Origin: Cyanobium sp. | Lineage (GTDB): Bacteria > Cyanobacteriota > Cyanobacteriia > PCC-6307 > Cyanobiaceae | NCBI GenBank assembly: GCA_044356035.1 | Contig: JBIKWZ010000006.1 | Location: 4,031 to 68,030 of the forward strand | Reading direction: 5' to 3' | DNA length: 64,000 nucleotides | Shown: piece after piece, positions 3,895-51,622 of the stretch | Layout: every line of letters begins with the position of its first letter | How positions within the stretch are numbered: the stretch's first letter is position 1 | Program-made: the position numbers and the translations under genes | Notes under the pieces: generated by a model | What the model saw: the letters and a program-made list of their open reading frames with translations, nothing else | Databases searched by the model: none | What the model was told of the DNA's origin: nothing

Positions 3895-3919
3895 GAAAAC
3901 GGCCTGGCTGACGCGGATC

Positions 3920-10138: not shown

Positions 10139-10160
10139 AAAAAGGGCCCTTCCAGGCCCC
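10139..10160 (-). terminator. Intrinsic terminator of ssrA
   Basis: Minus strand GGGGCCUGGAAGGGCCC followed by UUUUU. Confidence 0.6.
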
Positions 10161-35086: not shown

Positions 35087-35272
35087 GCGAAGTTAACAGG
35101 GCAGGCGATACTAAAACAAAGGCAACACATTCAAGGTAAAAGAATAGCCAGAGGGAAGGGCGACTAGAGTCAGTATTCGGCAGCAGATTACACTTTACAA
35201 CAAAAACCAAGGCCAAAACCGAGACTCCCGCTCCATCAGCCAAGCTTGGCAGAAAGTAGACAGACAAGGTGG

Positions 35273-36277
35273 ATGAATCAGTCGAACGTATTAGAGCTTA
35301 GGGGGCTATACAGAAAGTTTGGATCCCTGGTTGCAGTAGACCATCTCGATCTCAGCTTGTACAAAGGGGAGTTTTTCACGCTCCTGGGCGCATCTGGTTG
35401 CGGAAAAACGACAATCATGCGCCTGATTGCCGGATTCGACCAGCCCGATGGCGGCCGCGTGGTGCTTAACGGCAGGGATGTCACAAACCTGCCTCCCCAA
35501 AAGCGCAATGTCCACACGATGTTTCAACAATATGCTTTGTTCCCACACTTAAGTATTTGGGACAACGTCGCGTTTGGGCCTCGTTCACAGGGAAAGGACA
35601 ACGCAGAAACCCGCCGTAAGGTAGGAGAAATGCTGGAGATTATTGGACTGACAGAGAAAGCAAGGTTTTTCCCCAAGGATCTCTCAGGTGGCCAGCGGCA
35701 ACGGGTAGCACTGGCCAGGGCGCTGGTCAACACGCCCGCACTGTTGCTCCTTGACGAGCCGCTCGGGGCACTTGACGCCACAATGCGGCGAGGACTGCAG
35801 CTGGAATTAAAACGCATTCAGCGTGAAGTGGGGATAACATTTCTGATGGTGAGCCACGACCAAGACGAAGCCTTTTCAATGAGCGATCGCTTGGTTGTGT
35901 TAAACGCCGGGCGCATCGAACAACTGGGAACACCAAAAGAAATCTACGAAAAGTCAACAACAAGCTACGTGGCTGGATTCGCAGGCCAGGCCAATCTGTT
36001 GCCCATGGCGAGTGGCACATTGGGCATGATCAGACCAGAACGGATACGACTCAGCCAAACAGAACCCTTCGGGGAAGAAGATGGCTGGAAAGGTCATCTG
36101 ACTGCCGTGTTTTACCAAGGGGCTGACTGGCGCCTCGAACTCACGCGTGATGATGGGAAAGTGTTATTTATTCTTCTCAACGTAGGAGAAGCGCCGCCAA
36201 CACTGAAGATCGGAGACCAGTATTGGGGCAACTGGAAGCGCTCCGATCTCCATCCCATCACTGGGGAAGGAACCTAA
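35273..36277 (+). CDS. potA: Spermidine/putrescine-type ABC transporter ATP-binding protein
   Basis: Walker A LLGASGCGKTT, Q-loop, signature LSGGQRQRVALARAL, Walker B LLLLDEPLGALD, C-terminal TOBE-like domain. AAGGTGG RBS just before the ATG at 35273. Confidence 0.9.
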   Translation: MNQSNVLELRGLYRKFGSLVAVDHLDLSLYKGEFFTLLGASGCGKTTIMRLIAGFDQPDGGRVVLNGRDVTNLPPQKRNVHTMFQQYALFPHLSIWDNVAFGPRSQGKDNAETRRKVGEMLEIIGLTEKARFFPKDLSGGQRQRVALARALVNTPALLLLDEPLGALDATMRRGLQLELKRIQREVGITFLMVSHDQDEAFSMSDRLVVLNAGRIEQLGTPKEIYEKSTTSYVAGFAGQANLLPMASGTLGMIRPERIRLSQTEPFGEEDGWKGHLTAVFYQGADWRLELTRDDGKVLFILLNVGEAPPTLKIGDQYWGNWKRSDLHPITGEGT

Positions 36278-37416
36278 TGCACTCCATGGGATTCAATCGG
36301 CGTAGATTCCTCAGGCTGCTGGCTGCCAGTGGTGGCACGGTGATGCTCGGCCACGCATTAACTGGATGCGACCTGGGTAGTGGTAGGTCAAAAGCAAAAC
36401 CCTTAACGATTTCGAATTGGCCACTATTCATCGACGTTGATCAGGCAGGGTCAGTAGGAACTGTCAAACGATTTGAGCAAGCAACTGGCCTCAAAGTCGT
36501 ATATAGAGAGGACCTCAATGATCCTGATTCGTTCTTCTCACGCATCAGGATTCCTCTTGCCATGGGACAGCCATTAGAGCAAGATATCCTGATCATTCCA
36601 AACTGGCTGGCATCCCGCCTGATCCGCCTGGGCTGGCTAGACAAGCTTCCCCTCGCGAAGATACCCAACGCAAGCAATCTCGAGGTGTCATTACGCCGAC
36701 CGCTCTGGGATCCAACAGAGCAGTACACGCTACCCTGGATGGTAGGAGTTACGGGTATTGCCTATAATGTAAAAGCAACAGGCGGAGAACTCAGCTCAGT
36801 TGACGACCTGTTCGCGAAGTCGTTGCATGGGCGGGTTTCTTTTCTCTCACTTTGGCGTGACACACTCGGGTTAATGATGCTTGCCGATGGCAAGGATATC
36901 GCAAGCCCAACGTTCGAAGATGCCCAACCAGCATTACAGAGACTGAAACAAGCAAAAGCGAGTGGGCATATTCGTTCCTTCACTGGCAACGACTACCAGA
37001 AAGATCTACTCGTTGGCAATCTGGCTGCCTGTGTTGCCTGGGCTGGGGATGTGGCTCAGCTGCTAAGCGAGAATCCAGATCTGCGTTTTGTTGTCCCAGA
37101 AACAGGTGGCGTCTTAACAGCCGATGTGATGGTTATACCCCGAGACGTAGATGCAGTGGAGCAAGCTGCTGCCTGGATGAACTACGTTTACGAGCCCACC
37201 AACGCCGCAAAGATTATTGCGTCAACTCACTTTATTAGCCCTGTCAAAGGGGTTCGCCAAGTGCTGGCGGCATCCCCAGCAACGGCCGAGCTCATCAATG
37301 ACCCCTTGATGTTTCCCAATGCTGCAATGGGAAAGCGATTGCACATGCTCGGAGCCTTCAGCGATCGGGATGAAGTGGCCATCGAGAAAGAGTTCTCTCT
37401 ATTAACTGCATCATGA
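36277..37416 (+). CDS. potD: Polyamine-type periplasmic substrate-binding lipoprotein with a twin-arginine signal
   Basis: MHSMGFNRRRFLRLLAASGGTVMLGHALTGC (Tat motif plus lipobox), then PotD/PotF-like ISNWPLFID...YREDLND...IPNW...YTLPWMVGVTGIAYN. TAATG overlap with potA. Confidence 0.85.
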   Translation: MHSMGFNRRRFLRLLAASGGTVMLGHALTGCDLGSGRSKAKPLTISNWPLFIDVDQAGSVGTVKRFEQATGLKVVYREDLNDPDSFFSRIRIPLAMGQPLEQDILIIPNWLASRLIRLGWLDKLPLAKIPNASNLEVSLRRPLWDPTEQYTLPWMVGVTGIAYNVKATGGELSSVDDLFAKSLHGRVSFLSLWRDTLGLMMLADGKDIASPTFEDAQPALQRLKQAKASGHIRSFTGNDYQKDLLVGNLAACVAWAGDVAQLLSENPDLRFVVPETGGVLTADVMVIPRDVDAVEQAAAWMNYVYEPTNAAKIIASTHFISPVKGVRQVLAASPATAELINDPLMFPNAAMGKRLHMLGAFSDRDEVAIEKEFSLLTAS

Positions 37417-38288
37417 AATTACGCTTTTCTCGCCAACAATTACCCCTGCTCCTGGTTGCCCCAGGCGTAACGTGGCTGATCTTCTTTTTTGTTCTGCCGA
37501 TCATTGGACTTCTCAAGCAGTCGTGGTCAAGACCAATCAGCCGATTCGGCCTCGAAACGACGCTGAGCGCCAATCCCGACAATTATTACGATGCCTTGTC
37601 GCTGGCGACACCTCTGTTTCTGCGTTCCATGGGGATTGCAGCACTGGCCACAGTCATTGGCCTGATCATTGGGTTTCCTCTGGCATGGTGGATTGTCCGA
37701 AGAGGAGGCAGATGGAAACCCTTGCTCACAGGCCTGATTGTCGTTCCCTTCTTTTTCTCCTATCTCGTTCGCACCATTGCCTGGACCACCTTACTTGCAG
37801 ATAGCGGACCCCTGATGCAACTTCTGCGCACGCTGTCCCTTGGCCACGTACTGAACAGCGTTGGCGTGCTCCAGGATGGGCGCTTACTAAACACCACGGC
37901 AGCCCTGATTGCAGGCATAGCCTATAATTACCTTCCTTTTCTCGCCTTACCAATCATTGCTAGCTTGGGAACGATTGACCCAATACTCCTGGAAGCCGCA
38001 GCAGACCTAGGGGCGCAGGGGCCACGAATTTTCCTCAAGGTTGTGTTTCCTCTGGCACTTCCTGGAATTATCTCAGGGAGCTTACTGACATTCATTCCCG
38101 CCATGGGTGATGTGGTGAATTCGCAATATCTTGGAGGCGTAAACGATCGCATGATTGGTAGCCTTATCGCCGATCTTGTGTTGATTCAGCAACGCTTTGA
38201 AACGGCAGCCGCCATCAGCGTCCTGCTGCTGGCAATGATAGGATTCTCCCTATTTATATACAATTACAAATTCGGCAAACTAGCCTAG
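37413..38288 (+). CDS. potB: Polyamine-type ABC transporter permease
   Basis: 6-TM permease with the EAA loop LLEAAADLGAQGPRIFLKVVFPLALPG. ATGA overlap with potD. Confidence 0.88.
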   Translation: MKLRFSRQQLPLLLVAPGVTWLIFFFVLPIIGLLKQSWSRPISRFGLETTLSANPDNYYDALSLATPLFLRSMGIAALATVIGLIIGFPLAWWIVRRGGRWKPLLTGLIVVPFFFSYLVRTIAWTTLLADSGPLMQLLRTLSLGHVLNSVGVLQDGRLLNTTAALIAGIAYNYLPFLALPIIASLGTIDPILLEAAADLGAQGPRIFLKVVFPLALPGIISGSLLTFIPAMGDVVNSQYLGGVNDRMIGSLIADLVLIQQRFETAAAISVLLLAMIGFSLFIYNYKFGKLA

Positions 38289-38302
38289 CAGGCACCACTT
38301 AA

Positions 38303-39112
38303 ATGGAAACTTTGAAACCAAGTCAAAACCGACTGCAGGCCCCCTGGCTTGCACTCTGGAGCCTCGCTGTGTACGGGCTACTCTTCGCACCAGTAGCAGT
38401 CATTGTACTGTTCAGCTTCAATGCTCCTCAAAGCCGTTTCAACCTTGTTTGGCATAGCTTTACCCTAAAAAATTGGCTGAATCCGTTTGCAGATCCAACA
38501 CTCGCACAGGCCTTCTTTACAAGTTTAGGGTTGGCCCTGCTATCCACACTGCTCTGCATTCTGCTGGCGCTGCCGATGACTATGGCGTTGGAACGCTTTC
38601 GCATCAGAGGAGCCTCAGGCATGGAGTTGCTGCTGGTGCTTCCCTTAACGCTGCCTGAAGTGGTATTGGGGGCATCACTATTATTGTTGTTCGTGCAGTT
38701 GCGCGTACCACCCGGTCCACTAGCCCTGGTCATTGCCCATACCTTGTTTTGCCTGAGCTACACGGCAATGGCACTCAAAGCGCGACTTGGAGGCCATGAC
38801 TGGTCGCTAGAAGAAGCTGCTGCTGATCTAGGTGCCTCGCCATTCCGAATATTCTCAAAAATCACCTTACCGAGACTTGCACCTGGGCTGCTTTCAGCGG
38901 GTCTGCTCAGCCTGTCGATCTCGATGGATGATTATGTCGTTTCTTCAATTACAGCAGGATCAGTCATTACCTTTCCAATTCGAATTGCGGGAGCCTTCCA
39001 AAGAGAAATATCGCCCCAGATTCACGTCTTATCGACCATTGTATTGATCTGCAGCTTGATTGCACTGGTGCTTAGCTGCCGAGAATCAAAAGCGGCTGTC
39101 AAGTTGAGTTAA
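38303..39112 (+). CDS. potC: Polyamine-type ABC transporter permease
   Basis: 6-TM permease with the EAA loop LEEAAADLGASPFRIFSKITLPRLAPG. Confidence 0.88.
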   Translation: METLKPSQNRLQAPWLALWSLAVYGLLFAPVAVIVLFSFNAPQSRFNLVWHSFTLKNWLNPFADPTLAQAFFTSLGLALLSTLLCILLALPMTMALERFRIRGASGMELLLVLPLTLPEVVLGASLLLLFVQLRVPPGPLALVIAHTLFCLSYTAMALKARLGGHDWSLEEAAADLGASPFRIFSKITLPRLAPGLLSAGLLSLSISMDDYVVSSITAGSVITFPIRIAGAFQREISPQIHVLSTIVLICSLIALVLSCRESKAAVKLS

Positions 39113-39127: not shown

Positions 39128-40600
39128 ATGGTACCAGCCGTCAAAGATTCAAGGAATCACAATGCGAACACCAACCTCGACGCGATCGTCGTCGGTGCAG
39201 GGCTCTCCGGCTTGATTGCCGCAAGGAGACTGCAAGCCAAAGGCAAGCGCGTGGTGGTGCTTGAGGCCCAACACCATGTTGGTGGTCGAATGGTCAGCTA
39301 CACCACGAGCAACGGCAGTGTGGTGGATTTGGGCGGGCAATGGGGGGGAAGCAGCCACCACGGCTTCAGCGCACTGCTCATAGAGCTCGGAATCGAAAGC
39401 TACCCCAGCTACTACAAGGGCAAGGGGGTGTTCCATTGGCAGGGGAAGCGGCAGGAAGCCCCGCTGGCCAACGACTTCGCTGAAAGCTTCTTGTTCTTTC
39501 AGCCAGAGGCCCTCGCGCTGCCCAGGGAAGAGATGGAGGCTGCGCGCTTGCTCCTGAACGAATTGTCGAAGCTCGTGGCCCGGGTGGATCGGCAACAGCC
39601 CTGGCTCACGGACGGGGCTGAACAGTTGGATCGGCTCAGCGTTGCTGCGTGGGCGGCGGAGTACACCAGCATTCCATTGGCGCAACTGCCACTCCAATGG
39701 CTCTGCCGCGTCGGCGGATCCGGTGGGTTTGAACCCTGGGAAAGCTCAATCCTGCATCTGGCCTGGACACAAGCAGTGGCACCACAGGCGGAAACACCCG
39801 AGGCATGGCTGGTTGAGGGCAGTGCTGGCTCTGTGACCCAGCGCCTGGCACAGGATCTGGAGCAGCAAGCACCCGGTTGTCTGCTGCTGGGGCAGGTTGT
39901 GACAGAGATCGAACAACGCGGTCTGCTGGTGGAGGTCAAAACAAGCAGTGGGTTTGCTCAGCAAGCCAGCCTCGTGGTCGTGGCGGTTCCGCCGCCACAA
40001 CGCCAGGCAATTGCCTTTACCCCGCCCTTGGCTCCACCACATCAGGCGCTGCTGCAGCGGTCCCCGATGGGAGGCATGACGAAAATTCTGGCCACCTATG
40101 CCCATGCGTTCTGGCGTGAGCAGGGCCTCAACGGGCTGGGCATTGGCGATCGACCAGCCCTGCAGCTCACCGCCGACAGCGGCGGCCCTGAGCATCAACC
40201 AGCCGTGCTGGCTAGCTTCATCGCAGGTGAAAAAGCGATCCAGCTGGGAGCTCTTGCCGACGCCGAGCGCCACAAAATGATCCTTGACGACCTGGTCTCC
40301 TACTGGGGGCCGCAAGCATCCGAACCACTCGATCTTGTGGAGAAAGCCTGGAACGGCGAAACGTTCACCGGTGGCGCCTTCACAAGCTTTCTGATCCCTG
40401 GCACATGGACCAGCGTCGGCAGGCTGGCGGCGGGAGATCAGGGCGGGCCGGGCCCTGCAGACCATGGACGAGTGCTTTGGGCTGGCTCAGAAGTCTCGCC
40501 CCGCTGGCCTGGCTACTTCGAGGGCGCCATTGAGGCCGGCGAGCGGGCTGCCGCACGCAGCCACGCCGTGCTGGAGGCAACAGATGGAACCCATACATAA
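39128..40600 (+). CDS. Cytoplasmic FAD-dependent amine oxidase (MAO / putrescine-oxidase family), paralogue 1
   Basis: Dinucleotide fold DAIVVGAGLSGLIAARRLQAKGKRVVVLEAQHHVGGR, no signal peptide, C-terminal VLWAGSEVSPRWPGYFEGAIEAG. Starts 15 nt after potC, so probably in the same operon. Confidence 0.85.
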   Translation: MVPAVKDSRNHNANTNLDAIVVGAGLSGLIAARRLQAKGKRVVVLEAQHHVGGRMVSYTTSNGSVVDLGGQWGGSSHHGFSALLIELGIESYPSYYKGKGVFHWQGKRQEAPLANDFAESFLFFQPEALALPREEMEAARLLLNELSKLVARVDRQQPWLTDGAEQLDRLSVAAWAAEYTSIPLAQLPLQWLCRVGGSGGFEPWESSILHLAWTQAVAPQAETPEAWLVEGSAGSVTQRLAQDLEQQAPGCLLLGQVVTEIEQRGLLVEVKTSSGFAQQASLVVVAVPPPQRQAIAFTPPLAPPHQALLQRSPMGGMTKILATYAHAFWREQGLNGLGIGDRPALQLTADSGGPEHQPAVLASFIAGEKAIQLGALADAERHKMILDDLVSYWGPQASEPLDLVEKAWNGETFTGGAFTSFLIPGTWTSVGRLAAGDQGGPGPADHGRVLWAGSEVSPRWPGYFEGAIEAGERAAARSHAVLEATDGTHT

Positions 40601-40772
40601 AGCTGCAAGCAGAGTGCCCCTCGGGCGAATTAGATGATCAGCAATTGGGAGTTCAAAGACATATCTTGATCAATGAGTCATCCCTAACCCTTCTGCGGAG
40701 GTGGGGCGGTTGTGACGCCTGAAAAGAACCTCCGGCCCGCACAGACCAGCACCACATCACAACTCTCCATAA

Positions 40773-41972
40773 ATGAAGGCGAAACGACAGCCCCCTCGAA
40801 CCATGCGATCACGGACTAGTAATAGCGTGCTGCACAAGCTGCCGCCCAGCAGTAAAAGAATCGTGGTACTGGTGTTGAGCAGCCTGCTGTGCCTGGCCGC
40901 AGTGCTTCTGCCAACTAGTGGCTTACTACTCAGCAAAGCTCAGGGGCTCTCCGATGTGCAGACCGGCAGTAAAACCGTGGAACTGGCCCCGGACGCCAAA
41001 ACGGAGGGCATGGAAGTAAATGTGGGCATCCAGCTAAAGAACATCTACGACCTCAACCTAGCAAGCCAAAGCTTTCTAGCCGAAGGCTGGTATTGGCTAA
41101 GCTGGAATGATGAGGTTCAGGCGGTACTAGAGAGCCTAAAGATTGAGCCAACCCAGATGATTGAATTTCCCAATGAAATCGAAGCGGGCCAATTCTCTGT
41201 AAATGAGGTACTCCCCGAAGAAGTGAAGGTCAAATCCGGAACCCCCCATTCACTGTATGTAAAATTTTCAGGCAAGTTCTACATAGACGAAGTGGCGCAG
41301 CGCCTAGCACCATTTGATCCGCAGCGATTAAAATTGGCACTGGAAGTGAAGCTATCAAGCCTTACAGAAGGCCCAAATCAAATCAACCTAGTGCCAATTT
41401 CGATCGAACAACTGCCTATAGCTGGGGAGTTTTCTTCCGTGAACGGCTTTATTCTCACTGACACCGAATGGACTCGTCAGATGGCCAACTATATTGAACC
41501 ACTTGCCGGCAAGAATCAGACCAGATCCAGACAAATTGTGCGCTACAGCCGCGCAACAGCTATTTTGACATACTCACCAGACCCGGTCACAGTGTTCCTC
41601 AAGTGGCTGCTACCACTCATTGCAGTAATGGGAATCGTGATACTCTCACCATCCATTGACGGCACATTAGGCGATGTGCGCCTGGCAATACCATCTGCAG
41701 CCCTGCTGACCCTGGTGGTGTTGCATGACGGTTACAAAGAGAATTTCCCTCCAGCTCCTTACCTAACCTACCTCGATGAAATATACACCTATAGCTACAT
41801 AGCTTGCTTCGTGATCTTCTTGCTTTTCCTAGTGGGAACCAATACTCATAGCCGTGGGAGCGAGCAAGAACGTGAAGCAATCAGCAATAAAATTAATAGG
41901 CTCGATTTAATCGTACAGGTAAGCATGATTTCCGGGTTCGTGATCGTAGCCAGCGTGGGCTGGTTCAGCTGA
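40773..41972 (+). CDS. Prokaryotic pentameric ligand-gated ion channel (Cys-loop receptor / GLIC-ELIC family) homologue
   Basis: N-terminal signal anchor. A ~210-aa beta-rich periplasmic domain starts VNVGIQLKNIYDLNLASQSFLAEGWYWLSWND and contains APFDPQRLKL. Four TM helices follow (FLKWLLPLIAVMGIVIL; RLAIPSAALLTLVVL; PPAPYLTYLDEIYTYSYIACFVIFLLFLV; LIVQVSMISGFVIVASVGW). Order and motifs match my recollection of GLIC. Start could be the second ATG at 40803. Confidence 0.75.
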   Translation: MKAKRQPPRTMRSRTSNSVLHKLPPSSKRIVVLVLSSLLCLAAVLLPTSGLLLSKAQGLSDVQTGSKTVELAPDAKTEGMEVNVGIQLKNIYDLNLASQSFLAEGWYWLSWNDEVQAVLESLKIEPTQMIEFPNEIEAGQFSVNEVLPEEVKVKSGTPHSLYVKFSGKFYIDEVAQRLAPFDPQRLKLALEVKLSSLTEGPNQINLVPISIEQLPIAGEFSSVNGFILTDTEWTRQMANYIEPLAGKNQTRSRQIVRYSRATAILTYSPDPVTVFLKWLLPLIAVMGIVILSPSIDGTLGDVRLAIPSAALLTLVVLHDGYKENFPPAPYLTYLDEIYTYSYIACFVIFLLFLVGTNTHSRGSEQEREAISNKINRLDLIVQVSMISGFVIVASVGWFS

Positions 41973-42413
41973 AGAAAGCGACGAAGACCAAAGATGGGCG
42001 GATCACCAATGACGCAATCAACGCCATGGTGTTAGAGCAGAAACCTGCTTGCAGGATATCGGCAGGCCCGCAAGATTCACTTGCAATGGCGGTGTGAGCT
42101 ACATGCAACCGTTGGTTTCTCACCAACTAAAGATGTATACCACGTAGCTGCCCCAGCCACTCTGAAATCCAGGCCAATCGATGAGGAAGAGGCGGACAAT
42201 CAGCAATTATGGATCATCCTTGACAACCAAAACGCAACCCCCATACGGGCGTTGCTTTCAAGCCAAACAATTAATGAATAAACAGGAAAATCTATCCCGA
42301 GACCAGGGCAACCAACCAAAGCGAGAAGGTTTTATAAAAAGAATGAACCAATAAAAACATCCGAGAGCAAGGTATTAAAGTAGTTTACTGAACAGAGTAG
42401 CAGGAGTAGTCGC

Positions 42414-43916
42414 ATGCCTTTTTCACGTCGGCTGTTCCTAGGAGCCAGTTCCGCAGCAGTAGTGTGAACAACACTTGGGTCGCCTGCCTTCTCCGAGAAT
42501 GAGCCCAGACTTGAGACATCAAGAGCGAAAGGAAGATTCAACTCTTCAAGCGACGTCGTGATAGTCGGAGGTGGGATCTCAGGTCTAATTGCAGCAGTTG
42601 AACTTGAGAAGAAAGGCAATACAACAACGGTGCTCGAAGCCAGTTCTCGCTTCGGTGGACGATGTGTACGCCAAAAAACAATCCAGAACTGGTGGGTGGA
42701 CCTTGGTGGGCAATGGATGGGCAAAACACACCATCTCTTTAAGGACCTAGCCAAGGAGCCTGACATCAAAACATTTGACAGCTTCTACGATGGCGAAACA
42801 GTCTTTATCTGGAATGGGAAAAGGATCACTGCCCCGATGGACAGTGATTGGGCAAGCTCCTTCATCTACGTCCCCTTTGACAGGGTCCCGGTTGCCGAAG
42901 AAGACCGAAAAGCCGCCCGCCAACTGCATCAAGAATTCCTGGAACTCACGAAGTCTGTCGACAACGAACGGCCCTGGCAAAGCCCACAGGCTAGAGAGCT
43001 CGATACGCAGACCATCGAAACATGGCTAAACAGCCGAACCAACTCTGAGCTTACACACTATATTTTCAAGTGGTATACGCGCGTAGGTGGCTCTGGCGGA
43101 TTTGAGCCAGGTGAATCATCGATGCTTCACCTGGCTCAAACACAAAAAGCATGTCCGTAAGGAGAAACCCCTGAGCAGTGTTTGCTGTACGGGGCAGCAG
43201 GTCAGGTGCCTGAGCTTTTGGCCGATAGAATTAAAGGATTGATTCGAACCAATGCCGCCGCACAAGCTATAACTAGCAGGGAAGATGGATGCCTGGTTAA
43301 AGCTGCGGATGGAACATCACACGGTTGTCGAGCTGTAGTGGTTGCCGTACCACCACCCTTCCGTTCTCGAATCGCCTTCGAACCGAGTTTACCACATCAA
43401 ATATCAGGCCTTATACAACTTTCGCCAATGGGGTCAATGTTCAAGATCATGACCGTATACAAATCAGCCTGGTGGCAACAACGGGGCCTTAATGGTCTCG
43501 GCCAAGGAAATTTGCAAACTGTAGAGCTCACTGCTGACTCTTCACCTCCTTCAGGGAATCCCGGGGTACTTGCTTCATTTGTAGCCGCCGATAAAATCGT
43601 CAAACTTGTGTTGCTATCCGCCAAGCAACGGCGTGAAGCAATTCTTGCCAATCTCGTTCAATACTGGGGGCCAGAAGCGGGGACTCCAGATGATTACATC
43701 GAAATCAACTGGGCTGATGCAGCGTGGACAACCGAAGCCTTCACGTCCTATATGACGACAGGAGCCTGGACCAGCTTTGGTCCTGCATGGCGAGAACCAG
43801 TCGGACGCATTGTATGGGCTGGGACAGAGTCGTCATCAACATGGGCGGGCTTATACGAAGATGCAATTCAAGCGGGGCTTGACTCCGCGACTTCAATTGC
43901 ATCACTTCTATACTGA
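42414..43916 (+). pseudogene. Tat-signal FAD amine oxidase, paralogue 2, disrupted by two in-frame stop codons
   Basis: One reading frame throughout: MPFSRRLFLGASSAAVV, TGA (42465-42467), ...DVVIVGGGISGLIAAVELEKKGNTTTVLEASSRFGGR...RVGGSGGFEPGESSMLHLAQTQKACP, TAA (43158-43160), GETPEQCLLYGAAGQV...IVWAGTESSSTWAGLYEDAIQAG. Collinear with paralogue 1 across the TAA (paralogue 1 reads APQAETPEAWLVEGSAGSV). Confidence 0.8.
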
Positions 43917-43952: not shown

Positions 43953-45404
43953 TCAGGCTAGATTCAAGCGTTTAGCGATCCGACCAGCCAAGACGGCTCC
44001 ACTGTGCAGTGCACCCTCCATGTAGCCAGTGAACAATAAACTGGCATACTCTCCAGCAAAAAAGAGTTTATCCTGAATGCCTTCCTCCAGCCGTGGGTAG
44101 ATGCTAGTCACTTCACCTAAAGATGGGCAGCTATAGCCGCAAGCTGTCCAGCGCTCTTCGGGCCAAGCCATAAACAATTGTTTCCGCACTGCACTTCCAT
44201 AATGTGGATAAATCGCATTGATCCATGTCGTCATCTGAGCATCACGCTGCCTCTTCGGAATTTGCAAACACTGCTGTGCAGCGGCTCCTCCTGAAAAAAC
44301 GGTGAAGGCGCCAGCGTCTTGGGGTGTAAGCCGTTGGCCATCACTCGCATCCCAGGTTTCACCGATCGCTGTCGATGTCAGAGCGTTAGGTCCAAGGTCT
44401 GAATCCTGCCAGAATGGTCTGTCAACAGCACTGATGTATTTAATGGCGGGCCCAGCAAAGGGCCTCAATTCAGCAGCCAATTGAGGCTGGATCTCCATTT
44501 GTGCCCAAGTGGATGGAGGCGCCGTGAACACCACCAGATCGCCACGGAACTGCTGGCCGTCAGCAGTGGTAAGAAGAACGCCATTGTGTTGCAGAGAAAC
44601 TCGCTCAACGGGCGTCCGCAAGGCAATGCGGTCACTACCGATAGCAGAAGCGAGTTTAGTAGCAAGAGCTTGATTTCCCTCAGCACAGCGATAGATCTCG
44701 GATTCTGTCCAAAAGGCCTCAATGCCGCCCCCAGCAATCGTGCTCAAAATCCCCAGATAACTGGCCTCAGAGGGGTTGGTCGCAGAATCATTAGCAAGCA
44801 ATGCCAAGGCCGCGGCGCGAACATCGGGCTCAACCGACCAATGGCTGGCAACATCAGCAAGCGAACGTTGATCAAGCCGTGCAGCATCGGCTGTGAGCCA
44901 GGGGCGATCGCGGTTGATGAACCTCGCATCGCTATTCATCAAGGCTAAAGCCTTATACATCTCTGCGAAAAGACGGTTAGCTGCTTGGTTAGTATAAGAT
45001 TTGCCATTGATCAGCAAGGGTGAAGCAAGATCATCATCATCACTGACATCTCGCATTGTGAGTCCAAATTCCTTGGCATAGGCCATCCAAGTGGGGTGAT
45101 TGCCACCAACTAATTCAGCCCCAACTTCAATCAGCTGACCGGGAATAACATTACCAAGTGTAAGGACACGACCACCTAAGCGGTTGCGGGCTTCTAGAAC
45201 CAATACATCCGCTCCGGCGCGGTGCAGTTGATAAGCGCAGCTCAAGCCAGCGAAACCAGCACCGATGATGAATACTCTAGGGCGCAAAATAGACTGGGCA
45301 GTGGTTTGGCGCTGGGGCAACATCAGCGCTGCTCCCGCCGCTAGCGAGGCTTGGAGAAAACGGCGACGACTAATAGCACTGGGGACCGCTCCCACACGGC
45401 GCAT
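43953..45404 (-). CDS. Tat-signal (periplasmic) FAD amine / L-amino-acid oxidase, paralogue 3
   Basis: SRRRFLQASLAAGAALMLP (twin-arginine), RVFIIGAGFAGLSCAYQLHRAGADVLVLEARNRLGGR, C-terminal LFFAGEYASLLFTGYMEGALHSG. Start set at the ATG at 45404. Confidence 0.85.
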   Translation of the reverse strand: MRRVGAVPSAISRRRFLQASLAAGAALMLPQRQTTAQSILRPRVFIIGAGFAGLSCAYQLHRAGADVLVLEARNRLGGRVLTLGNVIPGQLIEVGAELVGGNHPTWMAYAKEFGLTMRDVSDDDDLASPLLINGKSYTNQAANRLFAEMYKALALMNSDARFINRDRPWLTADAARLDQRSLADVASHWSVEPDVRAAALALLANDSATNPSEASYLGILSTIAGGGIEAFWTESEIYRCAEGNQALATKLASAIGSDRIALRTPVERVSLQHNGVLLTTADGQQFRGDLVVFTAPPSTWAQMEIQPQLAAELRPFAGPAIKYISAVDRPFWQDSDLGPNALTSTAIGETWDASDGQRLTPQDAGAFTVFSGGAAAQQCLQIPKRQRDAQMTTWINAIYPHYGSAVRKQLFMAWPEERWTACGYSCPSLGEVTSIYPRLEEGIQDKLFFAGEYASLLFTGYMEGALHSGAVLAGRIAKRLNLA

Positions 45405-45776
45405 CAACTGAGTGATCGCCCTAGTTTTCAAAGTGGGAATGCTTTTTCCATAAACCTTTATAGCGGGGCCCCGAGGAAAATGCAAGCAATGCGGCGTCAG
45501 CCGCCAAAGCAGAAGCAGTACCTGGCCAACAAGATATTTACAATAAAACTAATCGCCTAAGCGTTGCGACAATCAGCCAGCAGAATCAGGCCGTTGCAGG
45601 AACACGATACGTTGGTTTCAGTCGAGCGGACTATTTCGATTGGGACGGTCTCAACATCCTGGGCGGCGATACAGTGAACATCCTGTTAGCGCCACCCTAG
45701 CTTCGAGCATTTGTCAGTCAGTCCTGCTGTACCCAAGCCTAAAAATTATCGCAGATCAGTTCTCCAAACAAGCACC

Positions 45777-46396
45777 ATGGATTTCTTCGAACGGCAATGG
45801 AGTTCTTTCCGAGCGATCGTGGACCACGACCTCATAGAGCATCATCGTTCGGTAGCTGACTGGACCGCAGAGGAGTTGAAGCGCTGGCTATCCAAGCGTC
45901 CCGCATCTGCATCCGCACCGTCAATGGTGGATTTTGGCTGTGGTGATCTGGCCCTGCTTGCCCCCATGGTTCTCGGCCCGGTGCCCTACACCACTCACTA
46001 GCGAGAGGGAGACCTGCACCAGTGGGCCGGCACCAGGCCGGACATCCTGCATTCCGAATTTGACTTCACCACCTAGACAGTGATCAGAAATTACAAATCC
46101 CAAAGGGCGAACGTCGTCGCGTGAAGCCTGGTGGAATTTTCACCTGGGCAGATGTATTCTGTGAGCCAGGTGCATCACTAACTGGTTATGCCGATCGCTA
46201 CGCAGAACGCATTAAACATAGTTGGTCGATACTTGATCTAGAACAACGCATGCATGTGGGGCCCATCAACGGCAGTTCGACATCCCAGCGGAACAGCAAT
46301 TCATTGAAAATGCCGCAAGATCACAGGCTGCACTGGGAGAGGGCATGGCAAGGGCAACATCAAGCAGAAGCTGTGGCGGTATTAAAACCAACCTGA
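45777..46396 (+). pseudogene. Fragmented class I SAM-dependent methyltransferase
   Basis: MDFFERQW...MVDFGCGDLALLAP (motif I) ends at a TAG at 46001. After ~120 nt with further stops, VKPGGIFTWADVF (post-II motif) resumes in another ORF (46121..46396). A third frame carries a plausible continuation ...QRQFDIPAEQQFIENAARSQAALGEG. At least two disruptions. Confidence 0.6.
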
Positions 46397-46457: not shown

Positions 46458-47948
46458 TTAGAATCTAAAACTGACCTTGATCAAGCAGCCCAGCTGGTTG
46501 AAACTCTCGCCAGCAGGGGTATCCGCACCTAACGGACGATAGAGATAAAATATGGCTGGAGTCACGGCAATATTATCAGTCAACTGGATGCTGTACCACC
46601 ACTCCCACACATAGTTACCATCATTAGGTGTATCAGAGCCGTAAAGGCTGGTAGCAAAGGTTGCTTGACCAGCAGCCATTCCCAGCGTATTGCCTTTAGC
46701 AAAGGCATCTGACCATTGCAGACCCACAGCCCACGACTGACTAAGTGAAACGAGGCCGAGATCATTCACATCACTTGAGTAGGTGGTTCTGTTAATACCC
46801 CAACCAACACTGATCGATGGGAGCCAGCCAGATTGAGCAGGTTGCCAATAGCCACTGAGCCCAAAGGCTGAGGTATAGCCCGAATTTCTGAAGCTGGCGA
46901 GCGTAAAATTGGTGGCATATAGGATTAGGCCTTGACCATTCTGAACAGCAGAGTAAATTGCAGCGATTGCCCATTGATCAGCGCTATAGCCAATTTGCAC
47001 AGTGCTAGTACTACCCGAATCCTTAGTGGCGATCCCGCCCTGACCCGCCTCACTCCCGCCTCCATTAGCAGCAACATAATTAACACTAATCGAAAAGCGA
47101 TTTTTCTTCCACCACGCACCCGCACCCACACCGAGATTTAAATTATTGGCACCTATTGAACCCGCAGAAGTCATAAGGTCCAGAATAGAGTCCGATGGAT
47201 ACAGGCTGGGCCAAACCGCCAACATATTATCTTGTTCAACCCGCGGGCCAATGGTGAACGTGAAATCACCAATCGGGACCTGATAATAAAGTCGATTCAC
47301 TGAAAATCGATCGGCTCTTGACGCCTCTTGGAAAGCCACCTCTAACTGCGATAGAGCACTAGGTCCAGCCCCACCGAAGCTATTGCGTGTTGAGTCAAAA
47401 TTTCCAGCCCTAAGTCTTATATGAAGCAAATCACGACCGTTAAAGCTAGTATCCAGCATCAGCCTCGTATCGTAGTTAAAAGTAGTCGCCCCATATTCAC
47501 GACTGCTACGATCCACGAGATCCGATGCGCTACCCTCGAAAGAGCTGCCACCCAAAACGAAAGTGCTTTGCCCCGACAGTGTCGTTGTTGGCGTGAATTG
47601 CATAACTTCCAGTGCAGCAACCCGCGTTTCAATATTATCCACCATGGCATTAGTGTAAGCCAGGTGTATTTCATCACTAATATCTAATACGTTGACGAGA
47701 AAGCTCTCGTCAACGGCCTTGTAAGACTTCGCTTCAAACGTAACGCCCTGATGAGCGTGCCTGGGAGCAACCTCCTCCTCTGGGCAGACGTAGGGGAATG
47801 AAAATGTGCAACCACTGGGTTGATTCTCAGTCGGCCCAGGCGCTGCCGAGGCACTACCGTCGCATGCGATATGCGAAGACAGGCTCAACGCAAATAAAGA
47901 AGCATGAAACCTCTTCAATGCCCCATATAAACTCCGATAGCTATGCAT
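46458..47948 (-). CDS. Cyanobacterial OprB-family porin
   Basis: Signal peptide, coiled segment NIETRVAALEVMQF, then TTTLSGQSTFVLGG...FNYDTRLMLDTSFNGRDLLHIRLRAGNF and a beta-strand pattern ending ...KVSFRF. Starts 4 nt after the upstream ATPase gene. Confidence 0.8.
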   Translation of the reverse strand: MHSYRSLYGALKRFHASLFALSLSSHIACDGSASAAPGPTENQPSGCTFSFPYVCPEEEVAPRHAHQGVTFEAKSYKAVDESFLVNVLDISDEIHLAYTNAMVDNIETRVAALEVMQFTPTTTLSGQSTFVLGGSSFEGSASDLVDRSSREYGATTFNYDTRLMLDTSFNGRDLLHIRLRAGNFDSTRNSFGGAGPSALSQLEVAFQEASRADRFSVNRLYYQVPIGDFTFTIGPRVEQDNMLAVWPSLYPSDSILDLMTSAGSIGANNLNLGVGAGAWWKKNRFSISVNYVAANGGGSEAGQGGIATKDSGSTSTVQIGYSADQWAIAAIYSAVQNGQGLILYATNFTLASFRNSGYTSAFGLSGYWQPAQSGWLPSISVGWGINRTTYSSDVNDLGLVSLSQSWAVGLQWSDAFAKGNTLGMAAGQATFATSLYGSDTPNDGNYVWEWWYSIQLTDNIAVTPAIFYLYRPLGADTPAGESFNQLGCLIKVSFRF

Positions 47949-47952
47949 AGCA

Positions 47953-48708
47953 TTATTGGCGACTCAGGAAGTTACGGAGACGCTCACTTCTGGGATTATT
48001 AAATACTACTACGGGGTCCCCCTGCTCTTCAATCAGGCCATTATTGAAAAACAACACCTGGTTGGACACGTCGCGCGCAAAGCGCATTTCGTGAGTTACA
48101 ACCAACATCGTCATGCCACTTTCAGCCAACACTTTCATCACCTGCAGCACTTCACCCACAAGCTCAGGATCAAGAGCACTAGTAGGTTCATCAAAAAGCA
48201 TCACGGCGGGATTCATGCAGAGACTACGCGCAATGGCCACCCGTTGCTTTTGCCCACCCGAAAGCTGACTGGGATAAGAATCTGCACGATTCAACAGGCC
48301 GACCAGGGACAAATGGTGCTCGGCAAGTTTTTGACACTCTTCAAGCTGTAATCCCAACACCTGTCGAGGTGCGAGTACGAGATTTTCTATGACTGTAAGA
48401 TGCGGAAATAGGTTAAATTGTTGAAACACCATCCCCACGCTCATCCGAAGCTGACGGAGCTGTTTCCATTGAAGAGGAGTCCCTGGCACATTCTGCCCCA
48501 TCACCCACAATTCGCCGCCATGGAAGCTCTCCAGCCGATTGAGGCAGCGAAGGAACGTGCTTTTGCCGCAGCCGGATGGACCAATAATTGAAACCACGTC
48601 ACCGGCATGAACCGTGGCACTCACACCTTGTAGCACCTTGATGTCGCCATAGCTTTTGTGTAAATCCCTGCACTGAAGCACAGGTTCAGGTCCAAGGGGG
48701 GTCATCAT
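47953..48708 (-). CDS. Polar amino-acid ABC transporter ATP-binding protein (GlnQ/BgtA-like)
   Basis: Walker [29 protein letters not shown], Walker [14 protein letters not shown]-loop VVTHEM. Start set at the ATG at 48708. Confidence 0.92.
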
Positions 48709-48758
48709 GGGACTTCCGACTGTCTTCAGGGGATATGGCGCACCGGCCAAAACTCAGT

Positions 48759-50237
48759 ATGCGGCAAATGGCCAGCGTGTGGCGAAGACTTGCCCTTCTT
48801 GTCATTGGCCTGATGGCAGTGAGCCTTCAGAGCGCACTTTGGGCCATGCCAGCACAAGCCTGGAAAGTAGGTACCGATCCTACATTCCCGCCATTTGAGT
48901 TCCGCGACACATCGACTGGTGCAATTACAGGCTTTGACATAGAGCTAATCGAGGCGATTGGCAAGCAGTCTGGACACTCCATAGAATGGATACCCTTGCC
49001 GTTCGACGGCCTGATTCCAGCCCTGCAATCCCGCAGTGTCGACGCTGCAATCAGCGCAATGACCGTCACACCAGAACGGGCTCGTGCTGTCGACTTTAGT
49101 CGTCCTTATTTCAAAGCGGGGCAGGCGATTGTTGTGCGCACCAATGGCCCCTCCTTCAGCACTCTTGCTGAGCTAAAAGGGCGCCGCATCGCAGTTCAGA
49201 TCGGCACCACTGGCGCTCAAGAAGCAGGCAAAATAACTGATGCCCAGGTCATTAGTTTTGACTCTACCCCCACGGCGCTACAGGAGCTCGCCAACGGCAA
49301 TGCCGATGCTGTTGTCAGTGATGTTCCCGCTATCTTGTATGCGATTGATCAAGCCAAACTCACTGGTCTGCGAATCTCCGGAGAACACCTCAGCACAGAA
49401 TATTATGGCATTGCACTCCCCACCAATTCCCCAATAGCTCCAGCTATTAATCAGGCACTCAATGCGCTGATTGAAGATGGTCAATATGCAACGCTCTATG
49501 AAAGATGGTTTGGCGCAGAGCCACCAGCGCTTCCAGATCGTGCTCCCAGCCTGACGCGCCCTGCTTCTCCGTTAGCGGGACTCGACCTCAACATGTTGTT
49601 GAGCAACTTGCTTAAGGGCGCTGGCGTGACCCTGCTGCTCACCGTGCTTTCTTTCAGTTTCGGACTGTTAGGCGGCACAGCACTCGCCATGGTGCTGCAA
49701 GTCCCTTGGGCATTCGCCCACCGACTCTGCCGTATCTATATCGATTTTTTCCGTGGCACGCCGATGCTTGTGCAGTTGTTTCTTATTTATTTTGGACTCC
49801 CAGCACTGTTGCAAAGCATGGAGCTCCCCTTCACAATCAACAGGTTGGCTGCAGCCGTTATAGCGCTGAGCCTCAATGTTGCTGCCTATCTGGCTGAGAC
49901 GCTGCGCAGCGGAATTGAATCGATAGACAGGGGGCAATGGGAGGCCGCTGATGCATTGGGCTTCAGCCCAGTTGAACGCATGCGTTGCATAGTAGCACCG
50001 CAGGCCATTCGACGGATTTTACCACCACTTGCCAACGAATTCATTACTTTAATCAAAGACACAAGCCTCGCAGCTGTCATCGGATTTGATGAGCTTTTCA
50101 GACAGGGCCAACTGATGGTGGCCACCTCTTACCGTGCATTCGAAATCTACATTGCCGTTGCACTGGTATATCTCGTCATGACCACTACGGCCTCAATTCT
50201 CTTTAAGCGCTTGGAAGCCCGTATGCACATCCCTTGA
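48759..50237 (+). CDS. Fused periplasmic-binding plus permease subunit of a polar/basic amino-acid ABC transporter (BgtB/GlnHP-like)
   Basis: Signal peptide, SBP domain (KVGTDPTFPPFEF...GFDIELI...DAAISAMTVTPERA...), then a permease with FFRGTPMLVQLFLIYFGLP and the EAA loop QWEAADALGFSPVERMRCIVAPQA. Start set at the ATG at 48759 to avoid overlap with the divergent ATPase gene. Confidence 0.88.
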   Translation: MRQMASVWRRLALLVIGLMAVSLQSALWAMPAQAWKVGTDPTFPPFEFRDTSTGAITGFDIELIEAIGKQSGHSIEWIPLPFDGLIPALQSRSVDAAISAMTVTPERARAVDFSRPYFKAGQAIVVRTNGPSFSTLAELKGRRIAVQIGTTGAQEAGKITDAQVISFDSTPTALQELANGNADAVVSDVPAILYAIDQAKLTGLRISGEHLSTEYYGIALPTNSPIAPAINQALNALIEDGQYATLYERWFGAEPPALPDRAPSLTRPASPLAGLDLNMLLSNLLKGAGVTLLLTVLSFSFGLLGGTALAMVLQVPWAFAHRLCRIYIDFFRGTPMLVQLFLIYFGLPALLQSMELPFTINRLAAAVIALSLNVAAYLAETLRSGIESIDRGQWEAADALGFSPVERMRCIVAPQAIRRILPPLANEFITLIKDTSLAAVIGFDELFRQGQLMVATSYRAFEIYIAVALVYLVMTTTASILFKRLEARMHIP

Positions 50238-50284: not shown

Positions 50285-51622
50285 TCAGCTGTGCTCGCGC
50301 AGAAAGGTGATCGTGCCCTCAAGCTCCTCAGCGAAGCGGTCGATCTCTTCAGGGGTGGTTGTGAAGCCCAGGCTGGCGCGAGCTGAGCCGGGAAGACCAT
50401 AGAGGCGGTGCAGGGGCTGGGTGCAGTGATGGCCGCTGCGGATGCAGATGCCGGCTGAATCCAGCAGGGCGGAGATGTCGTTGGCGTGCAGGCCATCCAC
50501 CGTGAAGGCCGCCAGGGCGCCGCGATCGGGTTGCTGCTCGGGGGTGGGACCCAAGATATGCACTCCCTCGATCGCCTGGAGACGCGCAAAGAGCTGGCGG
50601 GTGAGCTGCTGCTCCCAGGCGTGGATGCGCTCAAGACCAATGGAACTGAGGTAGTCGAGGGCGGCACCCATGCCGATCGCCTCGCCGATGGCCGGAGTGC
50701 CCGCCTCAAATTTGTGGGGCAACTCGGCCCAGCTGCTGTGATCGAGGTAAACGTCCTGGATCATCTCGCCGCCGCCCAGGAAGGGCGGCATCGCCTCAAG
50801 CAGCTCCTCGCGGGCCCAAAGAAAGCCCATGCCGGTGGGGCCACAGAGCTTATGGGAGCTGCCCACCAGGAAATCGCAGCCCAGCTGGGCCACATTCACC
50901 ACCAGATGGGGCAGGCTCTGACAGGCGTCCACCAGCACCAGAGCGCCAGCGGCGTGGGCCAGCTCCACCACCTGCTCAATCGGGTTCAGGCAGCCAAGGG
51001 TGTTGCTCACCTGCACCAGGCTCACGAGCTTGGTGCGCTCGCTGATCTGGCAACGCAGATCCTCCAGATCCAGCTCACCGCTCTCAGTGAGGCCCGCATG
51101 GCGCAACACACAGCCAGTGCGCGCCGCCAGCAGCTGCCAGGGGACCAGGTTGGAGTGGTGCTCCATCACCGTGAGCAACACCTCATCACCGGGGCCCAGG
51201 TTGGCCTCGCCCCAGCTGCGAGCCACCAAGTTGATCGCCTCGCTGGCATTGCGGGTGAACACGATTTCTCGCGCATTGGCCGCACCAATGAAGGTGGCGG
51301 TTTTGCTGCGGGCTGCCTCAAAGCCTTCAGTGGCGCGAGCACTGAGCTGGTGGGCGCCGCGGTGCACGTTGGCGTTGTCGTGGTCATAGTAGTGCTGCAG
51401 GGCCGCCAATACCTGACGGGGCTTCTGGCTGGTGGCGGCGTAATCGAGGTAGATCAGCGGCTGGCCAAGGCAAGCCGTTTGGGCCAGCAGGGGGAAATCA
51501 GGCCGGGTGAGGGCAGCAAGATTTGGCGCGACCACCTCAATGCTGGGCGGGGTTAAGGCGGTGTTTGCTGAGGTGGTTGCTGCAGTAGTTGCTGCGGTGG
51601 TTGTGGTGGTGCTGGTGGTCAT
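50285..51622 (-). CDS. sufS: Cysteine desulfurase SufS
   Basis: IYLDYAATSQKP, NVHRGAH, PLP-Lys region SSHKLCGPTGMGFLW, catalytic-Cys loop IRSGHHCTQPL. Unusual Thr/Ala-rich N-terminal extension. Confidence 0.93.
   Translation of the reverse strand: MTTSTTTTTAATTAATTSANTALTPPSIEVVAPNLAALTRPDFPLLAQTACLGQPLIYLDYAATSQKPRQVLAALQHYYDHDNANVHRGAHQLSARATEGFEAARSKTATFIGAANAREIVFTRNASEAINLVARSWGEANLGPGDEVLLTVMEHHSNLVPWQLLAARTGCVLRHAGLTESGELDLEDLRCQISERTKLVSLVQVSNTLGCLNPIEQVVELAHAAGALVLVDACQSLPHLVVNVAQLGCDFLVGSSHKLCGPTGMGFLWAREELLEAMPPFLGGGEMIQDVYLDHSSWAELPHKFEAGTPAIGEAIGMGAALDYLSSIGLERIHAWEQQLTRQLFARLQAIEGVHILGPTPEQQPDRGALAAFTVDGLHANDISALLDSAGICIRSGHHCTQPLHRLYGLPGSARASLGFTTTPEEIDRFAEELEGTITFLREHS

Follow-up and report, generated by a model that had tools for sequence, protein, structure and literature searches.

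A divergent pentameric ligand-gated ion channel homologue in a low-GC island of Cyanobium sp., with amine oxidase neighbours confined to one shallow lineage

The present study examined an open reading frame (ORF) at 40773..41972 on the + strand of a 64,000-nt stretch of DNA from Cyanobium sp. (assembly GCA_044356035.1, contig JBIKWZ010000006.1, positions 4,031 to 68,030), which is referred to here as the window. The ORF starts with ATG and encodes a 399-aa protein that is almost certainly a divergent prokaryotic member of the pLGIC family (pentameric ligand-gated ion channels, or Pro-loop receptors). The gene lies between genes for flavin amine oxidases, and the initial annotation proposed from this location that the channel senses periplasmic amines or the pH/ammonium shift produced by their oxidation. 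The results obtained favor a different reading, to which we assign a probability of roughly 0.6 as a whole: the gene encodes a divergent but functional pLGIC, probably a homopentameric cation channel, and its location in an island with amine-related genes is incidental. Although GLIC and ELIC serve widely as structural models, what bacterial pLGICs do physiologically is obscure; a conserved genomic linkage would therefore be valuable, but the one proposed for this window proved not to be conserved.

The identity of the protein was established from sequence profiles and fold. A phmmer search of the PDB with the single sequence gave ELIC as the best match (E 1.5e-4, residues 75-365), the alignments were full-length, and ELIC and GLIC chains accounted for all 60 matches listed of the 110 that passed E<=10. 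A profile of the family built from 41 homologues (alignment A1) matched ELIC at E 2.5e-12 and GLIC at ~1e-7, and the 60 matches listed of the 156 that passed were all pLGICs. The hhalign probabilities of the channel family were 97.4% for ELIC and 95.4% for GLIC (E 1.8e-8 for GLIC), while the sequence identity of the channel to ELIC/GLIC was ~23%. The AlphaFold2 (AF2) model of the protein had a predicted local distance difference test score (pLDDT) of 82 and a predicted template modeling score (pTM) of 0.73. Foldseek placed GLIC first for this model (E 6.6e-17, TM score 0.76 normalised to target), followed by DeCLIC and ELIC; 1,098 matches were obtained against the PDB at E<=1e-3, the top 50 of which were all pLGICs. 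The GLIC and ELIC sequences used in these comparisons were 100% matches to PDB entries 2xq3 and 2yn6, respectively. Three GLIC strings that the initial annotation had quoted were correct and are contained in the former sequence, and the likeness to GLIC that it had noted in the N-terminal beta1-beta2 stretch and the M2-M3 linker was reproduced by hhalign.

The Pfam families PF02931 and PF02932 had been suggested as a check on this assignment, and the protein did not pass it. PF02931 (Neur_chan_LBD) scored 12.9 bits (E 0.073) against a cut-off of 26 bits, and PF02932 was not reported. The NCBIfam LIC model reached 17.6 bits against a cut-off of 280 bits. None of the 41 family members had a Pfam match at E<=0.01, and the database copies are all labelled 'hypothetical protein' for this reason. 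These sub-threshold scores reflect the sensitivity of the models and are not counter-evidence on homology. Since the single sequence falls below the thresholds of the curated models, homology was established via profile and fold. The initial annotation described bacterial pLGICs as rare, which is not true of this family: a scan with one genome per species yielded 132 relatives in species-representative genomes, and 2,206 clusters (50% identity) were found at E<=1e-3. The family is mostly picocyanobacterial, and a by-product of the present study is a sizeable, unannotated and Pfam-invisible pLGIC family with several paralogous picocyanobacterial subclades. Tasneem et al. 2004 (PMC549065) had already described bacterial pLGICs, those of cyanobacteria included, and what is new here is a further member, from a subfamily with little annotation. 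Pro-loop receptors of Synechococcus and Prochlorococcus were inventoried in 2016 by Jaiteh, Taly and Henin (PMC4795631) without an analysis of genomic context or function. These receptors resemble the channel in their Cys-less, simple architecture of a ligand-binding domain (LBD) and four transmembrane helices.

The full pLGIC layout claimed in the initial annotation was borne out by the AF2 model, with a signal helix, a beta-sandwich and four transmembrane helices, and by the profile and Foldseek matches. All of the following features are on the + strand. A basic n-region (SSKR) precedes a hydrophobic N-terminal helix of residues 25-48 in the AF2 model (40845..40916), a predicted Sec signal peptide or signal anchor, which is followed by a low-confidence linker (residues 48-63). 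This helix is predicted to place the following domain outside the cytoplasm. A second Met at 40803 would shorten the protein to 389 aa and is the start used by gene callers on near-identical metagenome contigs; the first 10-18 residues of the ORF are not conserved among homologues. The extracytoplasmic beta-sandwich LBD comprises residues ~65-270 (strands 66-269; 40965..41582) according to the AF2 model, the ELIC alignment and per-clade conservation. Within this interval, the ELIC alignment assigns W106 to loop D, E131 and N134 to loop A, E191 to loop B, and Y240 and Y258 to loop C. The Pro-loop motif A179-P180-F181-D182 (41307..41318) corresponds to Y119-P120-F121-D122 of GLIC in hhalign and by conservation. 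M1 consists of residues 271-294 (41583..41654), including a conserved kink proline, P281, and was delimited using AF2, hhalign and conservation. The pore helix M2 (residues 297-322; 41661..41738) was located by alignment to M2 of ELIC and GLIC and by conservation. The M2-M3 linker ENFPPAPYLT (residues 323-332; 41739..41768) contains the conserved P326, with E323 at 20' (hhalign, conservation). M3 (333-361) and M4 (364-398), which together span 41769..41966, are separated by a 2-residue turn in the AF2 model, and there is no cytoplasmic domain.

We used the superfamily-conserved residues in Table 1 of PMC4795631 as criteria. In the superfamily, the Pro-loop proline is absolute, the preceding residue is F/Y in 96%, the Pro-loop Asp is present in 93% and the pre-M1 Arg in 94%; the beta9 position is W in 71%, F in 16% and Y in 11%, the 0' residue of M2 is basic in 79%, and Leu occurs at 9' in 75% (PMC4795631). 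The channel retains the Pro-loop proline P180 (GLIC P120), which did not vary within A1 or among the 84 locus-derived sequences used for the per-clade residue comparison. F181 was also invariant in A1, and D182 (GLIC D122) was at least 90% conserved. At the buried beta9 position, the channel has Phe (F226), which aligns with W160 of GLIC and W160 of ELIC. Both the kink proline of M1, P281 (GLIC P204), and the M2-M3 proline, P326 (GLIC P247), were invariant, as were R303 at 0' and L312 at 9' of M2.

When M2 is numbered back from the M2-M3 proline, the residues are D301 (-2'), V302, R303 (0'), A305 (2'), P307 (4'), A309 (6'), L312 (9'), V316 (13'), D319 (16') and E323 (20'). The -2' residue, at the position of GLIC E222, was acidic (D or E) in all 84 sequences examined, and the clade of the window channel has extra acidic rings at 16' and 20'. 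Because of the acidic -2' residue and these rings, we infer that the channel is cation-selective. Cations would be conducted through the invariant acidic -2' ring (D301) and past the invariant R303 at 0', the L312 gate at 9', and the acidic 16' and 20' rings.

The agonist-contact residues of ELIC are Y38, I79, E131 and F133 (PMC9674596). In hhalign, with gaps around loop B, these residues map to W106, P133, E191 and L197 of the channel, respectively. E191 is retained throughout the family, with W106 and Y240 almost as well conserved, which renders an ELIC-like site for a cationic ligand plausible. In loop C, Y240 and Y258 align with what we take to be Y175 and F188 of ELIC. The conservation pattern makes it plausible that a cationic or amine ligand serves the whole family, independent of gene neighbours. 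In a neighbour-joining (NJ) tree used for clade placement, the channel genes with amine oxidase neighbours formed a terminal branch, or twig, within a clade found in an Aminotran_5/Mur-ligase context. This twig is the same as its sister clade at W106, E131, N134, Y162, E191, L197, Y240 and Y258, and differs from it at loop-A position 133 (P vs A). In a further clade, which is linked to an UrtA-like protein, E131 and Y162 are both replaced by R. Since the pocket residues are common to a sister clade in a housekeeping context, the neighbouring amine genes do not define the ligand. We propose that the channel would assemble as a homopentamer in the cytoplasmic membrane (possibly the thylakoid), with the LBD in the periplasm or lumen. 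A small extracytoplasmic ligand, probably cationic, would bind to an ELIC-like pocket of E191, E131, W106, Y162, Y240 and Y258 and open the channel, and this cognate ligand would be common to the window channel and the housekeeping-context sister clade.

ELIC of Erwinia/Dickeya chrysanthemi, which opens in response to primary amines (e.g. cysteamine and GABA), was the best sequence-profile match. The two proteins share their architecture, with a minimal M3-M4 turn, as well as the Pro-loop PFD, the M1 Pro, R0' and L9' in M2, and the M2-M3 pattern 'P..PY.T..D'. In addition, E191 and W106 are the counterparts of the ELIC ligand contacts E131 and Y38, and Y240/Y258 those of the loop C residues Y175/F188. 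However, the identity is only ~23%, and F133, I79 and the pre-M1 R199 of ELIC align with L197, P133 and P269 of the channel. M2 of the channel has A2'/A6'/V13'/D16' instead of Q2'/T6'/A13'/F16', along with the acidic -2' residue and the 4' proline, and the channel also has an N-terminal extension of ~65 residues that includes the signal helix. GLIC, the proton-gated channel of Gloeobacter violaceus, is also cyanobacterial, was the best structural match and shares the acidic -2' residue (E222, D301 in the channel). However, its sequence relationship to the channel is weaker. H235 and E35 of GLIC align with L314 and Q99 of the channel, Ala replaces the Pro-loop Tyr, the channel lacks a counterpart of the pre-M1 R192, and 0' is R rather than N.

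GLIC is activated by acid, sTeLIC by alkaline pH and DeCLIC by Ca2+ depletion. The channel may similarly be gated by protons or divalent cations and serve general ion, pH or osmotic homeostasis, which we regard as unlikely and about as likely as a role in amine sensing. GLIC and DeCLIC were the top structural matches, and a passage in PMC9897478 describes Ca2+ modulation as common in the family. Many acidic residues in the extracytoplasmic domain (ECD) and pore are conserved (E131, E191, D301, D319 and E323), and the commonest gene contexts of the family are housekeeping (DnaJ/hemB/MutS2, Mur ligase), as a homeostasis role would explain. On the other hand, the residues presumed to operate in GLIC are not retained: E35, which we take to be the main proton sensor, aligns with Q99, and the M2 His at 11' (H235), presumably implicated in gating, is Leu (L314). 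D301 does match GLIC E222, but this is a selectivity and not a gating residue, and the closest solved relative by sequence profile is ELIC, not GLIC.

The channel gene is under purifying selection. In a comparison with an allele at 84% identity, the ratio of nonsynonymous to synonymous substitution rates (dN/dS) was 0.18 overall, 0.06 across M1-M3, and <0.25 in every segment of the ECD. The ORF was intact in five contigs, and all 26 family-invariant columns were kept. These results speak against a decaying island passenger without function, which we consider very improbable. The island does hold at least one pseudogene (AOX2), and two coupling residues of the superfamily are missing from the channel; however, these residues are missing throughout a larger, clearly conserved clade. 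The history of the gene also differed from that of its surroundings. Between 40900-41700 of the window and 5990-6790 of the contig that carries this allele (L084), the ECD showed 78-88% nt identity, while the flanking island showed 94-100%. The synonymous divergence (dS) was 0.5-1.07 in the ECD vs 0.04-0.13 in the neighbouring Pot genes. This suggests that recombination replaced the allele, that balancing selection acted or that the metagenome contig is chimeric. Since an old functional ECD allele is present within a young island, the history of the channel is partly independent of its neighbours.

We then considered the conservation of the linkage between the channel and amine genes. For the 132 relatives, 80 loci with flanks of up to 10 kb were fetched and compared by tblastn, within +/-10 kb, using all window neighbours as queries. 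Gene contexts were cross-checked against the collection's own gene calls where present, since the greedy ORF caller favors antisense ORFs in high-GC flanks (e.g. 'antiAT5'). A homologue of the amine oxidases, the PotD-like binding protein or the permeases was found near the relatives in 0/80 loci. The initial annotation had named the absence of conserved linkage to amine genes among the grounds for refuting its functional hypothesis, and its step from neighbourhood to function is not supported by these loci. In exact-protein look-ups, the gene arrangement of the window was found only for relatives at 99% and 84% identity. Relatives at 58-70% identity lie between Aminotran_5 and a convergent Mur ligase-Glrx-YidD-rpsD cluster, and a relative at 49% identity lies between a GFO/IDH/MocA oxidoreductase and a lipocalin. 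Distant picocyanobacterial paralogues occur in the order DnaJ>pLGIC>hemB>glyoxalase>MutS2>Obg or adjoin DUF4912.

A similar result was obtained from the oxidase side. The three flavin amine oxidase genes of the window are called AOX1, AOX2 and AOX3. Orthologues of AOX1 (66-70% identity) in three long contigs of related genomes (L093-L095) are located directly between DUF1543 and sufS-sufD-sufC-sufB, and neither the channel nor the Pot system is beside them in these contigs. No channel was found beside AOX3 in the four short loci that a metagenome scan returned, with AOX3 orthologues from three non-identical contigs; their flanks are 0.6-1.7 kb long, and they give a weak negative. One contig (L098) has AOX2 and AOX3 as an intact pair that is oriented differently, and its short flanks lack a channel. 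A single shallow lineage (at least 84% identity) accounts for every case in which the channel adjoins an amine oxidase. Since no linkage to amine genes was found outside this lineage, the location gives an amine-sensing role no comparative support.

The alternative that follows the initial annotation is that periplasmic amines, or the NH4+, pH or H2O2 shift from their oxidation, gate the channel, which would form a unit with the neighbouring transporters and oxidases in this lineage. Several points are in its favor. The channel, AOX2 and AOX3, the last of which bears a twin-arginine translocation (Tat) signal, share one low-GC module, with the native AOX1 on one side and the remnant of a methyltransferase on the other. 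Genes for the uptake of amines and amino acids are numerous in the island, and amine-gated ELIC has E131 and a loop-D aromatic that are matched by E191 and W106. Another clade of the same family is tightly paired with an UrtA-like nitrogen-compound binding protein, and an association of bacterial pLGICs with periplasmic binding proteins (PBPs) is a known theme (PMC549065). However, we consider this alternative improbable because the linkage is not conserved from the channel side or the oxidase side and seven of the eight mapped pocket residues are identical in the Aminotran_5/Mur-ligase sister clade. Moreover, the adjacent gene on the same strand, AOX1, is native and predicted to be cytoplasmic and is 173-203 nt away, AOX2 has an in-frame stop, and the AOX2-AOX3 pair of L098 lacks a channel in its short flanks. 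The ECD of the channel was swapped for an old divergent allele between near-identical islands, and the channel thus evolves independently of the island.

The composition of the window explains how the genes came to be juxtaposed. The backbone is collinear with the contigs L093-L095 (IF-2B, DUF1543, AOX1, sufSDCB, ferredoxin-thioredoxin reductase, CpeS and phycobilisome linker; 65-93% protein identity). It has a GC content of 62-66%; for GC at third codon positions (GC3), five backbone genes were measured, of which sufB had a value of 52 and the other four 73-87. Two blocks of ~50% GC, with GC3 of 42-57, are inserted in this backbone: 35.05-39.12 kb, with the Pot-like genes, and 40.6-50.25 kb, with the channel, AOX2, AOX3, OprB and an ATP-binding cassette (ABC) system. 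The GC content of the channel gene is 49.5%. Sharp steps in GC and GC3 occur at gene boundaries at ~35.05, 39.13, 40.6 and 50.25 kb. The first block (segment A, 35246..39112) is absent from the orthologous locus in L093-L095. The second block is split by a methyltransferase remnant at 45762-46061. The channel thus shares a module of ~4.9 kb (40.6-45.5 kb) with AOX2 and AOX3, and the remnant points to two or more insertions on the right side. We concluded that the channel is cargo of horizontally acquired DNA of ~50% GC that was inserted on both sides of the native AOX1 (62% GC), and that the DUF1543-AOX1-sufS interval is a hotspot for flexible islands. A repeat search did not identify direct or inverted repeats at the island boundaries, and neither an integrase nor a tRNA was found there. 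The location of the channel would then reflect hitch-hiking or co-transfer in a flexible nutrient-acquisition island, and not a dedicated amine-sensing circuit. Neighbours within flexible, horizontally acquired islands are weak functional evidence and need to be interpreted with caution.

Several points weigh against the reading of the gene as a functional cation channel in an incidental location. The aromatic residue ahead of the Pro-loop proline is missing: the channel has A179, a position with Ala throughout its clade, and the family's other clades carry S, F, D or Y there. The pre-M1 Arg (R192 in GLIC, R199 in ELIC), which forms a salt bridge to the Pro-loop Asp, is also missing. In HMMER and hhalign, ELIC R199 is opposite P269, and MAFFT places the R/K column of the family at S268; the position is R, K or H in other clades. 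K277 and R260 co-occur in clades without a basic pre-M1 residue, and this pattern suggests that they may substitute for the Arg. In M2, the proline at 4' (P307) is near-universal in the family and unusual among pLGICs. With these coupling residues missing and the 4' proline present, gating may differ from the textbook mechanism; by the same features, the family offers a natural test of gating models. In the pocket, the loop-B aromatic (ELIC F133) is unmatched, with Leu (L197) in a gapped region of the alignment. The homopentamer, the ion selectivity and the ligand are all inferred from alignments at ~23% identity with gaps in loop B.

Further points of this kind concern the location. The contigs of the relatives at 58-70% identity are short (4-19 kb), and the flanks of the AOX3 loci extend only 0.6-1.7 kb. 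The channel's own GC content alone is weak evidence of a foreign origin. Family pLGIC genes are 3-17 GC points under their flanks in nearly all genomes sampled, with a marine Synechococcus (L076) as the exception; this may be due to the composition of membrane proteins or to frequent horizontal movement. Because the pLGICs of this family are generally low in GC, the argument for a foreign origin rests on the surrounding soluble-enzyme genes, whose GC3 is uniformly low. It is also possible that the channel, AOX2 and AOX3, which have the same low GC and form one module, were co-transferred from a donor in which they were functionally linked. We consider it improbable that the ~4.9 kb module (the channel, AOX2 and the Tat-exported AOX3) moved as a functional unit from an unsampled donor, with the channel sensing periplasmic amines or the ammonium/pH change made by the oxidase. 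If true, this would fit a wider pattern in which pLGICs of this family may repeatedly be recruited as electrical sensors beside periplasmic proteins that capture nitrogen compounds, and the independently conserved UrtA-like pair would be a second example.

The pairing with the UrtA-like protein is a linkage of a different kind. A stand-alone UrtA-like binding protein and a family pLGIC were paired in 18 loci that form one branch of the NJ tree. The contigs were binned as Myxococcota, Luminiphilus/Halieaceae and Verrucomicrobia, plus two of marine Synechococcus. The UrtA-like gene is directly upstream on the same strand in 16 loci (among them L021, L024, L031, L034, L036, L039, L042-L044, L046, L052, L055, L064, L069 and L072), and the order is reversed in the two marine Synechococcus (L076, L080). 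The protein of L042 scored 504 bits with TIGR03407 (cut-off, 493), and that of L076 scored 444 bits, which is under the cut-off. No urtBCDE component was found among the ten neighbouring genes scanned with Pfam at these loci, and the flanks were otherwise unrelated. This is a genuinely conserved linkage of a pLGIC to a periplasmic nitrogen-compound binding protein, and it would represent a better entry to pLGIC physiology than the amine island of the window. Tasneem et al. proposed chemoreceptor roles for bacterial pLGICs and described fusions with PBP type I domains and operons with PBP type II or Cache proteins (PMC549065). The family described here resembles those systems in the clade that is paired with the stand-alone UrtA-like protein (PBP type I), and the window channel has a PotF-like and an SBP_bac_3 protein within 10 kb. 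However, the binding proteins of the window belong to complete ABC transporters, do not adjoin the channel and are not conserved neighbours, and the channel has no fusion domain. Full-text literature searches did not identify a paper that joins pLGICs, Synechococcus and a physiological role, or UrtA and a ligand-gated ion channel. We also noted that three contigs from metagenome-assembled genomes labelled Klebsiella (L003), Nitrosopumilus (L021) and Sulfopaludibacter (L045) encode members of the channel family. L003 and L045 have picocyanobacterial synteny, with gene clusters that also occur in the window or in further loci from picocyanobacteria, and the UrtA-like pair is present in L021. The three labels are probably binning errors.

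The neighbours listed in the initial annotation, namely, a PotA/PotF-like ABC system, three flavin amine oxidase genes, OprB and an amino-acid ABC system, are all present in the window. Segment A (35246..39112, +) has 51.9% GC and a GC3 of 52-57, compared with ~64% GC in the backbone. According to Pfam and NCBIfam, it encodes a PotA-like ATPase, two permeases and a binding protein with a distant likeness to PotF/PotD; the binding protein scored 83 bits against a cut-off of 636 bits. AOX1 (39128..40600, +; PF01593, E 1.2e-59) has a GC content of 62.4% and a GC3 of 68, is native to the backbone, and is predicted to be cytoplasmic, with GxGxxG (FAD-binding) at residue 22 and no signal peptide. 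The gap between AOX1 and the channel, which are on the same strand, is 173-203 nt. AOX2 (42558..43916, +; Pfam) starts at its Rossmann motif without a signal peptide and is interrupted by an in-frame TAA at 43158-43160. It is split likewise in a 98.9%-identical contig (L081), and the orthologue in L098 is an intact protein of 504 aa; AOX2 is a probable pseudogene. AOX3 (43953..45485, -; Pfam) is on the strand opposite the channel. Its likely start is Met 45404, its counterpart in L081 has 483 aa, and it carries a twin-arginine signal (SRRRFLQASLAAGAALMLP; motif SRRRFLQ). The initial annotation had described the amine oxidases as Tat-exported, which stands for AOX3, the only one of the three with a twin-arginine motif, but not for AOX1 and AOX2, which lack a signal peptide.

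On the right side, the remnant of a backbone methyltransferase (45762..46061, +; tblastn, 43.6% over 140 aa to the methyltransferase of L093) coincides with a local GC bump and parts the channel/AOX2/AOX3 module from the next one. This second low-GC module (46458..50237, mixed strands; Pfam/NCBIfam, GC) contains genes for an OprB porin (-) and an ABC ATPase (-), along with one for a fused SBP_bac_3-permease (+) that is of the Gln/Lys-Arg-Orn type. The backbone resumes with sufS (50285..51622, -), followed by sufD, sufC and sufB; SufS scored 538 bits with TIGR01979 and was 89-91% identical to SufS of L093/L095, and the GC content returns to ~65%. We considered whether 50285-51622 is the Aminotran_5 neighbour of the sister clade, moved here by an inversion, and rejected this, because the score of 538 bits identifies the gene as sufS and its identity to the Aminotran_5 neighbour is just 28%. 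A scan of 40400-42700 for promoters and terminators detected nothing resembling a promoter, nor any + strand terminator following the channel gene, and an Rfam scan found no RNA element near it.

Some minor observations were made in and around the window. The island copy is the sole pLGIC within the 64 kb. The window has its own DnaJ-hemB-(glyoxalase)-MutS2 locus (2893-5449, -), without the pLGIC paralogue that is found between DnaJ and hemB in many picocyanobacteria. The coding sequence of AOX2 contains a 40-nt near-perfect palindrome (43101-43140) directly before the in-frame TAA, and 16-nt copies of one of its arms are also present at 45573 and 46162. AOX1 is split in L084; we initially took this for pseudogenisation and dropped the idea, as the DNA is 97% identical with two 1-nt indels that may be an assembly error in the Logan metagenome. 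Together with genes for a phycobilisome linker and CpeS at 56.7-58.2 kb of the window, the Rfam matches far from the channel mark the source as a picocyanobacterium; these matches were a permuted cyanobacterial tmRNA (10144-10425, -; 303 bits) and one tRNA (19080-19161, -).

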